A stretch of DNA of 64,000 nucleotides, from assembly GCF_057098645.1 (NCBI RefSeq), contig NZ_CM169472.1. One strand, 5' to 3'. Of this stretch, positions 1,343-29,560 are shown in pieces. A program made the translations under genes and the position numbers. The notes beneath the pieces were generated by a model. That model searched no databases. It was not told where the DNA came from and saw only the letters and a program-made list of their open reading frames with translations. Position 1 is the first letter of the stretch. Each line of letters begins with the position of its first letter.

Positions 1343-1414
1343 GTGCGGTTTTACCGCATACCAATAACGCTTCACTCGAGGCGTTTTTCGTTATGTATAA
1401 ATAAGGAGCACACC

Positions 1415-1579
1415 ATGCAATATGCCATTGCAGGGTGGCCTGTTGCTGGCTGCCCTTCCGAATCTTTACTTGAACGAATCACCCGTAAATTACGTGACGG
1501 ATGGAAACGACTTATCGACATACTTAATCAGCCAGGAGTCCCCAAAAATGGATCAAATACTTATGGCTATCCAGACTAA
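1415..1579 (+). CDS. cIII: CIII (FtsH inhibitor, stabilises CII)
   Basis: 54-aa translation [54 protein letters not shown], recognised as lambda CIII. Internal ATG at 1415 with AAGGAG RBS upstream. Confidence 0.8.
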   Translation: MQYAIAGWPVAGCPSESLLERITRKLRDGWKRLIDILNQPGVPKNGSNTYGYPD

Positions 1580-17725: not shown

Positions 17726-17898
17726 GATGAGCATTCAGATAGTGGTTCACGCGCACGGGTTGCGCACCGCCGGAGTAAGGATTTACTGAGGCTAGCGACG
17801 CCATCATAACGAGCAAAAAGTGCGATCGTCAAAGGAGAATCGTGAGGAAATGCTGCATTGCTGACATTTACGCCAGCAATGCAACGTCAAAGAACTTT

Positions 17899-21837: not shown

Positions 21838-21921
21838 ATGAAAATTATACTCTGGGCTGTATTGATTATTTTCCTGATTGGGCTACTGGTGGTGACTGGC
21901 GTATTTAAGATGATATTTTAA
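21838..21921 (+). CDS. yohP: Small membrane protein YohP (27 aa)
   Basis: ATG preceded by AAAGGAACG. Translation MKIILWAVLIIFLIGLLVVTGVFKMIF is a single transmembrane helix. Confidence 0.55.
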   Translation: MKIILWAVLIIFLIGLLVVTGVFKMIF

Positions 21922-22019
21922 AATTAATTAATGTCATCAGGTCCGAAAATAACGAGAATATTTCAGTCTCTCATCCTGTTGCGCTCCTGTCATGTGCATT
22001 GCTTCATATAATCACTGGC

Positions 22020-22235
22020 GCAAGGAGCGCGCAGGGGGCGGCCAATCGCCGCCGCCCCCTGCACCCCCGGGCTCTGGCGAACAAAATCGCCGCTGCGCGG
22101 TGCCCTCGGCTTATCCCTTACGGCTACCGGGTCGGGCGCGAGGTAACATCCCTGTAAAACGCGCCCTCAGCCCACATCCATGTGGGCTGCCCCGGCCTTC
22201 AGGGAACGCCTCGGCAATTTTGACGCCACCAAACA
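22020..22235. repeat. GC-rich structured intergenic element with multiple perfect hairpins
   Basis: Perfect 11-bp stem cagggggcggc/gccgccccctg (22032..22061) and 10-bp stem cagcccacat/atgtgggctg (22168..22189). Local GC is far above the flanks. The overlapping 86-aa Pro/Arg/Gly-rich ORF is probably not coding. Confidence 0.4.
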
Positions 22236-22293
22236 ACCGTGCGGCCTATTGATAAAGAGCTAACACATTGTCAAAAAACATCACTATGGTTTT

Positions 22294-23241
22294 TTAGAGT
22301 TTCTCGATATCAATTGCCTGAATAGCCCTTGCAATATCAGGGGAATTATTCAACACCCGAACATGCTGAAATAATTCCGTTGCTTCATCGTATTCTTTAC
22401 GCAAATAACTCAACCACTGTTTAATCCGCGCAACGTGATATAACCCGGTATCGCCCTGCTTTTCCAGACGGGTATATTTTTGCAGCAAAGCAACCACCTC
22501 CGGCCACGGCATTCGCGGTTCGTTATATTTTACCACCCGGCTCAGGTTGGGAATATTGAGCGCCCCGCGACCAATCATCACTGCGTCGCAGCCGCTGATC
22601 GCCATGCATTGTTGCGCGCTCTGCCAGTCCCAGATTTCACCGTTGGCAATCACCGGAATATTCAGCCGCTGGCGAATATCGCCAATCGCCTGCCAGTCAA
22701 TATGCTCCGCGCGGTAACCCTGCTCTTTCGTCCGCCCATGCACCACCAGCTCCGTAGCGCCAGCCTGTTGAACCGCATCGGCGATTTCAAATTTCTTCTC
22801 ACCGCTGTCCCAGCCCAGACGCACTTTCACGCTGACGGGCAAATGCGCCGGTACAGCTTCACGCATCGCTTTTGCACCCTGGTAGATGAGTTCAGGATCT
22901 TTGAGTAACGTCGCCCCGCCGCCGCTACCGTTAACCGTTTTCGACGGGCAGCCGCAATTGAGATCCACGCCCCAGGAACCTAACTCCACCGCACGGGCGG
23001 CGTTCTCTGCCAGCCATTGTGGGAACTGACCTAACAACTGCACGCGCACCAGCGTACCAGATGGTGTCCGGCTGGCGTTTTGTAGCTCAGGGCAAATGCG
23101 ATGAAAGACTTTTACCGGCAGCAGTTGATCCACCACGCGGACAAACTCGGTGATGCACAGATCGTAGTCGTTAACTTCGGTCAGCAATTCACGCACCAGA
23201 GAGTCAAGCACTCCCTCCATCGGTGCCAGTAACACACGCAT
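22294..23241 (-). CDS. dusC: tRNA-dihydrouridine(16) synthase
   Basis: TIM-barrel Dus family translation starting [22 protein letters not shown] (315 aa from internal ATG). Confidence 0.9.
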
Positions 23242-23443
23242 ATCATCACCCGCAAAAAAATGAGGCGCTATGTTAGCGCCTATGGTCAGCGGATTAAAGG
23301 TCTGCAAAGAGGGATTGCTGCAAACTGCAATCCCTCTCTATGCTTGATGTATGCCTGAGTTCGCTGCGCATTGCGTAATGCCGGGGAGCGAAAAAATAAG
23401 CGCTGATTTCTTAATGTGATCGGTAGCACGTTTTACGAATTAA

Positions 23444-29365: not shown

Positions 29366-29560
29366 CGCATCCGGCATTTGGTTCCTGTCGCCGGATGCGG
29401 CTTGAACGCCTTATCCGGCCTACAAAACCATACAAATCAGTATGTTGAGCTCATTGTAGGCCGGATAAAACGCGCCAGCGTTGCATCCGGCATTTGGCTC
29501 CTGTCGCCGGATGCGGCGTGAACGCCTTATCCGGCCTACAAAACCACACAGATCATGATG
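29366..29560. repeat. BIME: cluster of 3-4 REP elements in alternating orientation
   Basis: Repeated gccggatgcggc(g/t)tgaacgccttatccggcctacaaaacc units and an inverted copy, between the convergent preA and mglC. Confidence 0.8.

Follow-up and report, generated by a model that had tools for sequence, protein, structure and literature searches.

This report concerns a GC-rich intergenic element in a 64,000-nt stretch of contig NZ_CM169472.1 (NCBI RefSeq assembly GCF_057098645.1), hereafter the window, to which all positions refer unless stated otherwise. The element lies between two convergent genes, yohP (21838–21921, plus strand) and dusC (22294–23307, minus strand; stop codon at 22294–22296), whose 3′ ends face it. 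G+C content in 100-nt windows reaches 0.62–0.70 across 22000–22249, compared with 0.34–0.44 on either side, and averages 67.4% over 22013–22236 against 51% in the 1-kb flanks; the richest 224-nt stretch of the whole 64 kb (G+C 0.679, starting at 22021) falls at the element. A first-pass annotation had described 22020–22235 as a GC-rich, multi-hairpin element between yohP and dusC in surroundings of about 50% GC. Composition and location both hold, although the full repeat is larger (21978–22250). For 22013–22236 as single-stranded DNA, folding energies are −71.7 kcal/mol (z = −6.79) for the G-rich minus strand and −66.9 kcal/mol (z = −5.52) for the plus strand, and none of 200 dinucleotide shuffles equalled the fold on either strand. 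The features described for the element are confirmed as real and beyond chance.

We are highly confident that the element is RRS-dusC, the 'replication risk sequence' (RRS) 3′ of dusC, which forms the central part of the repeat TRIP1c and acts as DNA, not as a gene. It is real, important and already described, hence not a discovery; the first-pass annotation had missed this recognition. RRS were named by Pham, Cox, Goodman and colleagues (Pham et al. 2023, 2024; PMC10287960, PMC10592627), whose RRS-dusC is the deleted region 281 to 58 bp downstream of dusC. Counted from the dusC stop codon, these published coordinates place RRS-dusC at 22013–22236, with the minus strand as the 'RRS-G4' strand (G4, G-quadruplex). 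The TRIP1 repeat goes back to Rudd (1999) and was re-surveyed by Li et al. (2024; PMC10888264), who give TRIP1c as 273 bp, located 43–44 bp downstream of the stop codon of yohI (now dusC). In the window the full 273-bp repeat spans 21978–22250 and holds RRS-dusC, with homology to TRIP1a and TRIP1b of strain MG1655 beginning at GTTGCGCTCC (21978).

The sequence agrees with the published 222-bp RRS-dusC of MG1655 throughout. Positions 21940–22300 are identical to MG1655 2,229,084–2,229,444 by BLAST (361/361), and the published primer RRS-1R matches exactly at 22132–22150. The published G-quadruplex-forming 20-mer GGGGGTGCAGGGGGCGGCGG (PMC10592627) is matched exactly on the minus strand at 22049–22068; it was found in none of the shuffles and is unique in the window even with three mismatches allowed. 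Sequence (100%), position, strand, G4 motif and a partner copy at lysO are thus shared with RRS-dusC/TRIP1c of MG1655, and the element itself shows no difference from it. With 99.6% identity to MG1655 over the surrounding 18 kb, the window derives from a close K-12 relative, not from MG1655. BLAST detected TRIP1 in 5,425 of the 5,426 complete E. coli genomes, at 1–10 places per genome (median 3), which makes good the earlier suggestion of a separate class of intergenic repeat. No further copy was found within the 64 kb, either by BLAST (word size 7) or with R1, a covariance model built from 13 RRS core copies only, which matches the core in the window at 200.6 bits.

Read on the G-rich strand, all members of the family have three modules in common: a 165-nt junction, a 12-bp hairpin and a terminal stem that closes an AT-rich loop. 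The 165-nt core (22073–22238, minus strand) forms a three-way junction of a long closing stem and two hairpins, an arrangement similar to that of the TwoAYGGAY family discussed below. The arms of the closing stem, 22082–22097 and 22207–22222, are 16 nt long and 81% complementary. One core hairpin (22168–22189, minus strand) has the 10-bp stem predicted by the first-pass annotation, fully complementary between 22168–22177 and 22180–22189, and the loop region ACAUGGAUGU; the other (22133–22165, minus strand) has the stem GGGCGCG/CGCGCCC and the loop region ACAGGGAUGU. Outside the core lies hairpin H1 (22031–22062), a perfect G/C stem with an 8-nt loop that overlaps the G4 tract. A perfect stem had been predicted here too, but it comprises 12 bp (22031–22042 with 22051–22062) and not 11 bp at 22032–22061. 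In all members this 12-bp hairpin module starts with a G-run and is preceded by another; GGGGGAGGAGG is a natural variant of the G-runs. The terminal stem pairs GCGCTCCT with AGGAGCGC (21981–21988 with 22023–22030) and is seen both as an inverted repeat and as a consensus helix. The AT-rich loop that it encloses contains a perfect TATAAT hexamer (22007–22012, plus strand). Most copies keep ATATAA or ATATAT at this site, and a scan found no matching −35 element. Finally, two 18-nt direct repeats (22065–22082 and 22190–22207, spacing 125) bracket the 125-bp segment that is absent from the short forms (TRIP1b).

MG1655 carries a near-identical partner upstream of lysO, TRIP1a or RRS-lysO (915,025–915,246), which lies outside the window. 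It is in opposite orientation and shares 94.1% identity with RRS-dusC over 272 nt, with 4 differences among 224 core positions and 10 among 35 in the left arm. A third copy, TRIP1b, is found downstream of putP; in our alignments it lacks 125 bp of internal sequence, as does a short variant at the lysO locus; the 125-bp deletion within TRIP1 was also reported by Li et al. (PMC10888264). The G4 motif of MG1655 occupies opposite strands at the two loci, minus at dusC and plus at lysO. With dif at 1,590,750–1,590,777, the two copies lie in mirror orientation at roughly equal distances from it, 638.5 kb for the dusC copy and 675.6 kb for the lysO copy. The origin, oriC, we take to be at about 3.93 Mb, so that the fork at 2.229 Mb presumably moves towards lower coordinates. 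Since the motif is on the minus strand, that strand would therefore be the lagging-strand template, and by the same reasoning the G-rich strand appears to serve as lagging-strand template at both dusC and lysO. The G–C skew of the plus strand of the window (−0.027) is consistent with this assignment, and the RRS paper likewise states that the G4 strand is the lagging-strand template (PMC10592627).

The identity, position, strand, structure and conservation of RRS-dusC are established here; for polymerase block and gap formation we rely on the literature, which has shown both. On the lagging-strand template, RecA and SSB accumulate over a stretch of about 1.4–2.5 kb from each RRS, and these peaks vanish upon deletion of the corresponding RRS (PMC10287960). 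An RRS inserted elsewhere creates a new gap and peak at that site, an inverted RRS gives no RecA/SSB peak, and on the G-rich strand the G4 site blocks polymerases Pol I, II and IV (PMC10592627). According to the same study, removal of both RRS copies succeeds only where a region of about 200 kb is amplified in compensation, or when inverted or ectopic copies are present, and supercoiling patterns are altered in strains deleted for both. With the G4 strand as lagging-strand template, a single-molecule preprint from 2026 reports that essentially every passing replisome left a gap; gaps were fewer with the RRS in the other orientation.

In the mechanism that these data suggest, the G-rich minus strand, as lagging-strand template, folds once the fork has unwound the RRS. 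The folded strand combines a 12-bp G/C hairpin and a 165-nt three-way junction with a tract prone to form a G-quadruplex. Synthesis by the lagging-strand polymerase halts there and resumes downstream, and the post-replication gap that this leaves, single-stranded, transient and up to about 2 kb long, is filled by SSB and RecA. The dusC and lysO copies, in mirror orientation on either side of dif, bracket the terminus region, and the gaps may, as the authors propose, act as topological relief valves in termination and segregation. A parallel drawn by the RRS authors themselves is the pilE-associated G-quadruplex of Neisseria gonorrhoeae, likewise a G4-forming DNA tract with a strand-specific gap and a programmed outcome. 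The two differ in that there is no sequence relationship between them and that the output of the pilE element is pilin antigenic variation, not terminus topology. RRS are among the very few non-coding, non-origin sequences of the E. coli chromosome reported to be conditionally essential, and recognising one averts its being reported as a new repeat, mobile element or small gene. What is new here is offered as leads, not as established results, namely a family-wide structural map, a relationship to TwoAYGGAY and a quantification of natural inversions.

The structural map, which comprises the three-way junction with conserved GGA loops, the G-run hairpin and the terminal stem, is supported by covariation. 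The first-pass annotation had proposed to look for covariation in two stems, and compensatory changes were in fact seen in every helix. Our first alignment comprised 15 long copies, drawn from six lineages of Escherichia and two species of Pseudocitrobacter. Its consensus fold has 76 pairs, with 98.5% of cells paired; compensatory changes occur in 8 pairs compared with 1.7 in shuffles (none of 500 reached 8) and 0–2 in slid controls. In hairpin H1, Escherichia sp. E1V33 has two compensatory C–G to A–T changes. The 10-bp hairpin shows three compensatory double changes in copies L091 and L082 (L numbers denote our retrieved loci) around the invariant loop CATGGATG, and the same two copies carry a compensatory G–C to A–T change in the GGGCGCG stem, whose loop reads AGGGAU or AGGGAC. 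When cores from Klebsiella and Citrobacter were added, compensatory changes were found in 26 of 51 core pairs, 9 of the 20 pairs of the closing helix among them, with 95.9% of cells paired (0/500 shuffles), a count to be read with the caveat that this extended alignment was fitted to the covariance model. Covariation as such cannot tell an RNA fold from a fold of single-stranded DNA.

These relatives came from a BLAST search of PLSDB. Core identity is 82–85% for Klebsiella pneumoniae, K. aerogenes and K. variicola and 77% for the single core from Citrobacter freundii; the records that carry them are large and chromosome-like, and the loci are unrelated. In Pseudocitrobacter faecalis, P. vendiensis and C. 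freundii two cores stand head-to-head, 45–80 nt apart, the second being more divergent (L012 1964–2336; L060 5416–5788; L110 2491–2900). In Citrobacter and in the neighbouring element of Pseudocitrobacter, the arms of the 12-bp hairpin and of the terminal stem are wholly different in sequence with pairing kept: H1 is still a 12-bp stem, and CGTTCAC...GTGAACG is the equivalent of the terminal stem (recognised by eye, the folds covering the first 70 nt only). A separate species scan used the exact invariant 19-mer CRGCRATTTTRACGCCACC against one genome per species. It returned 98 stretches, comprising 15 loci that match the element by BLAST and 83 that are unrelated; the pattern was too strict for the Klebsiella and Citrobacter relatives, which were seen later by PLSDB BLAST. 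At the dusC locus of Escherichia sp. MOD1-EC7003 (L092 5696–5836), a 25-nt deletion removes the 10-bp AUGGAU hairpin from an otherwise K-12-type RRS-dusC, a variant in which structure has been lost naturally.

Several observations weigh against reading the element as an RRS with this role in replication. First, the functional evidence comes entirely from one group of laboratories and from K-12 only; and since the 12-bp hairpin sequesters one of the G-runs, the block may be due either to the G-quadruplex or to the hairpins. Second, the 19-mer scan placed the element only in Escherichia, Pseudocitrobacter and short, low-coverage contigs that are assigned to other taxa and look like E. coli contamination. 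The Klebsiella and Citrobacter relatives are at other loci, such that positional conservation across enterobacteria was not reproduced. Third, presence is variable, deletion forms exist and the element mediates rearrangements, all of which a selfish repeat would display alike. Lastly, orientation is not conserved in nature. Among the 5,426 complete genomes, the yohP–dusC region carries the K-12-type allele in 3,309 and an allele with the element inverted in 2,000 (about 37%, including O157:H7), while lysO–aqpZ is K-12-type in 4,029 and inverted in 895. E. coli E69 and the cattle strain 135 carry each of the two copies in inverted orientation. In such strains the G4 strand would be the leading-strand template, a configuration that gave no RecA/SSB peak in the authors' hands. 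Strains with both copies inverted offer a natural test of whether the G4 strand has to serve as the lagging-strand template.

In the inverted dusC allele an element of 270–290 bp is inverted between unrelated spacers, and the whole intergenic region differs (L050 1150–1640; L038 8000–8480; L071 5980–6450; L105; L107 13880–14266; compare window 21925–22297). The last codons of dusC read …IEKL* in the window and …IDKLR* in the inverted allele. Strain 135 and an O157:H7 genome have the protein accessions of DusC, MdtQ and a monooxygenase in common, and in E. whittamii and Escherichia sp. E1V33 the dusC copy alone is inverted. A single inversion between the two copies was considered as the cause of the polymorphism and rejected, as such an event swaps the inner flanks and keeps the orientation relative to the outer flank. 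Forward and reverse counts of TRIP1a and TRIP1c were already given by Li et al. (PMC10888264); in the available parts of that paper and of the RRS papers we found no link between such counts and the lagging-strand model.

Of the alternatives, the one that fares best is that TRIP1 is a decaying selfish repeat, once mobile or spread by recombination, that has no selected function and whose gaps are a side effect of a stable structure. We consider this unlikely. It would accommodate the spread of loci in Escherichia (yohP–dusC, lysO–aqpZ, putP–efeU and alx–sstT) and the occupation of others in further genera (mdlB–glnK in Pseudocitrobacter; near selD, bioA and sitD in Klebsiella; torD–yeiP in Citrobacter). 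Also in its favour are the occurrence of both orientations at one locus with non-homologous spacers, the variable copy number (1–10 places per genome), the deletion forms of 125 bp and 25 bp, the head-to-head pairs of cores and the inversions between copies that TRIP1 has caused (Li et al., PMC10888264). Against it stand the near-universal presence in complete E. coli genomes, a core that is better conserved than the arms (4/224 versus 10/35 differences), compensatory changes that preserve every helix across genera and the failure to obtain a clean double deletion (PMC10592627). By the usual criteria, the earlier suggestion of a miniature mobile element finds no support. The ends of the element are joined by the 5-bp pairing TGTTG/CAACA only, and neither an associated transposase nor, in the aligned copies, a flanking target-site duplication was recognised. 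No empty-site allele was found either, about 98% of genomes carrying one of the two full-length alleles at the dusC locus.

A structured RNA is a minority possibility, and one that we hold to be rather improbable. It would belong to the TwoAYGGAY class (RF01731; Weinberg et al. 2010), be made from the G-rich strand by read-through of dusC and bind a protein such as CsrA through its loops, serving as a small RNA, a sponge or an element of the 3′ untranslated region. The resemblance to TwoAYGGAY lies in a long closing stem, two adjacent hairpins with A-Y/G-GGA-Y loops and an AG between them. The closing stem, P1, is present in the element, and loop 1 (AUGGAU) fits AYGGAY; loop 2 (AGGGAU or AGGGAC) has G for the first Y, as do the AGGGAU and AGGGAC loops of some Psychromonas seed members. 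TwoAYGGAY is, moreover, multi-copy in some gamma-proteobacteria. A permissive Rfam scan aligned the model over positions 1–168 with 22085–22236 (minus strand) at 30.9 bits (E = 0.015), and it aligns full-length with every long copy at 26–31 bits, short of the Rfam threshold of 43 bits. Each of the two Pseudocitrobacter species has a further element on the opposite strand, about 45 nt away from the TRIP1 copy, that reaches 49.2 bits with RF01731 and so exceeds that threshold; R1 in turn matches these bona fide TwoAYGGAY elements over their full length, with scores of 42.7 and 39.5 bits (E = 6e-9 and 5e-8 in 786 kb). In E. coli the Pseudocitrobacter TwoAYGGAY element is essentially unmatched by BLAST, with one partial hit.

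The RRS core is therefore probably a divergent relative of TwoAYGGAY, though by the Rfam criterion it is not a member; that the RRS/TRIP1 core constitutes an enterobacterial branch of the class is a possibility we advance only tentatively. The two differ in that the element has an additional G-run hairpin and terminal stem, and in that TwoAYGGAY is filed as an RNA of unknown function while RRS activity was demonstrated on DNA. Should the relationship be true, the orphan TwoAYGGAY 'RNA' known from gut metagenomes, Clostridia and gamma-proteobacteria may in reality be a DNA element that forms its structure strand-specifically and programmes replication gaps or, alternatively, RRS may have an overlooked RNA or CsrA-related side. 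In the portion of the original TwoAYGGAY alignment available, which includes multi-copy Psychromonas elements, none of six E. coli/Salmonella accessions sought was found, and a full-text literature search on TwoAYGGAY had no paper on RRS or TRIP1 among the matches listed.

The case for an RNA draws further on conserved loops within covarying stems and on a likeness to the CsrA-binding hairpins of CsrB and CsrC. The element has two GGA-containing hairpin loops, 28 nt apart, and both loop regions, ACAUGGAUGU and ACAGGGAUGU, resemble the CsrA consensus RUACARGGAUGU obtained by systematic evolution of ligands by exponential enrichment: by sequence comparison, one agrees at 11 of 12 positions and the other at 9 of the 10 positions of the core ACARGGAUGU. 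The pattern ACANGGATGT occurs twice in the element compared with 0.35 expected in the whole window, and CsrA binding has been proposed for TwoAYGGAY by Gardner and Eldai, who noted a match of its loops to the CsrA motif. G–T wobbles favour the G-rich strand (29 cells versus 10 for A–C), a weak indication given that the model was built on that strand. Several findings speak against an RNA, besides the score below the Rfam threshold. No site resembling a promoter or a terminator, in the sense needed for a TwoAYGGAY-type RNA, came up in a scan for such signals. The strand in question is dusC sense here, but at the other K-12 copy it runs antisense to aqpZ and lysO, and a cis-regulatory RNA would not tolerate the natural inversion seen in a large share of genomes. 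In the available part of the gene tables of the CsrA study by Potts et al. (2017), dusC and ybjE are marked 'No' in four yes/no columns and are not significant. The effects of RRS at the DNA level, by contrast, were demonstrated directly.

A REP or BIME identity was rejected, in agreement with the first-pass annotation, which had noted that the sequence does not fit the REP consensus. REP elements are likewise GC-rich palindromic intergenic repeats, but they number hundreds (about 300 BIMEs) compared with the median of three places per genome for the element, which at about 270 bp has a multi-branch fold. Neither the REP consensus nor a match to naRNA4, the REP-derived Rfam family, is present in the element. 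The window does contain a naRNA4 match, at 29459–29536 (minus strand, 85.8 bits) in the preA–mglC intergenic region.

A protein-coding gene is almost certainly excluded: an ATG-initiated, Pro/Arg/Gly-rich open reading frame of 86 amino acids does exist (21992–22252, plus strand), and every copy has long stretches without a stop, as 67% G+C would lead one to expect, but 7 of 14 other copies lose the start context through a stop at codon 3 (ATG NNN TAA), copies differ by frame-shifting indels of 1, 2, 11 and 25 nt, variable sites are spread over codon positions (24/20/33) without the third-position excess of codon-like substitution, and no annotated coding sequence underlies the match in the listed RefSeq genomes. 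The frame was correctly taken at first to be a by-product of GC richness; it is not conserved among copies and is not a gene.

Some of the retrieved records merit comment. The repeat was found on very short, low-coverage contigs assigned to Pseudobutyrivibrio (L009, 432 bp) and to Bacillus sp. (L082, 583 bp), and on a 2.8-kb contig of a 'Proteobacteria' metagenome-assembled genome (L010). All three have E. coli-like putP, lysO or dusC sequence under unrelated taxa and probably represent contamination. In L082 the repeat joins sequence from upstream of lysO to putP sequence, pointing to a chimera or a recombinant junction. Several PLSDB 'plasmids' of 0.3–4.9 Mb with the element look like pieces of chromosome, and a 42-kb 'plasmid' (NZ_CP148327.1, L001) carries the chromosomal order hcr–hcp–lysO–aqpZ–ybjD with the short form of the repeat, 125 bp deleted, at lysO.

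Two further Rfam matches lie elsewhere in the window. The lambda cIII thermoregulator is matched at 1402–1460 (plus strand, 88.5 bits), which hints at sequence of a lambdoid prophage where the window begins. The Peptidase-S11 RNA motif is matched at 17730–17810 (minus strand, 72.8 bits), by its position upstream of pbpG.

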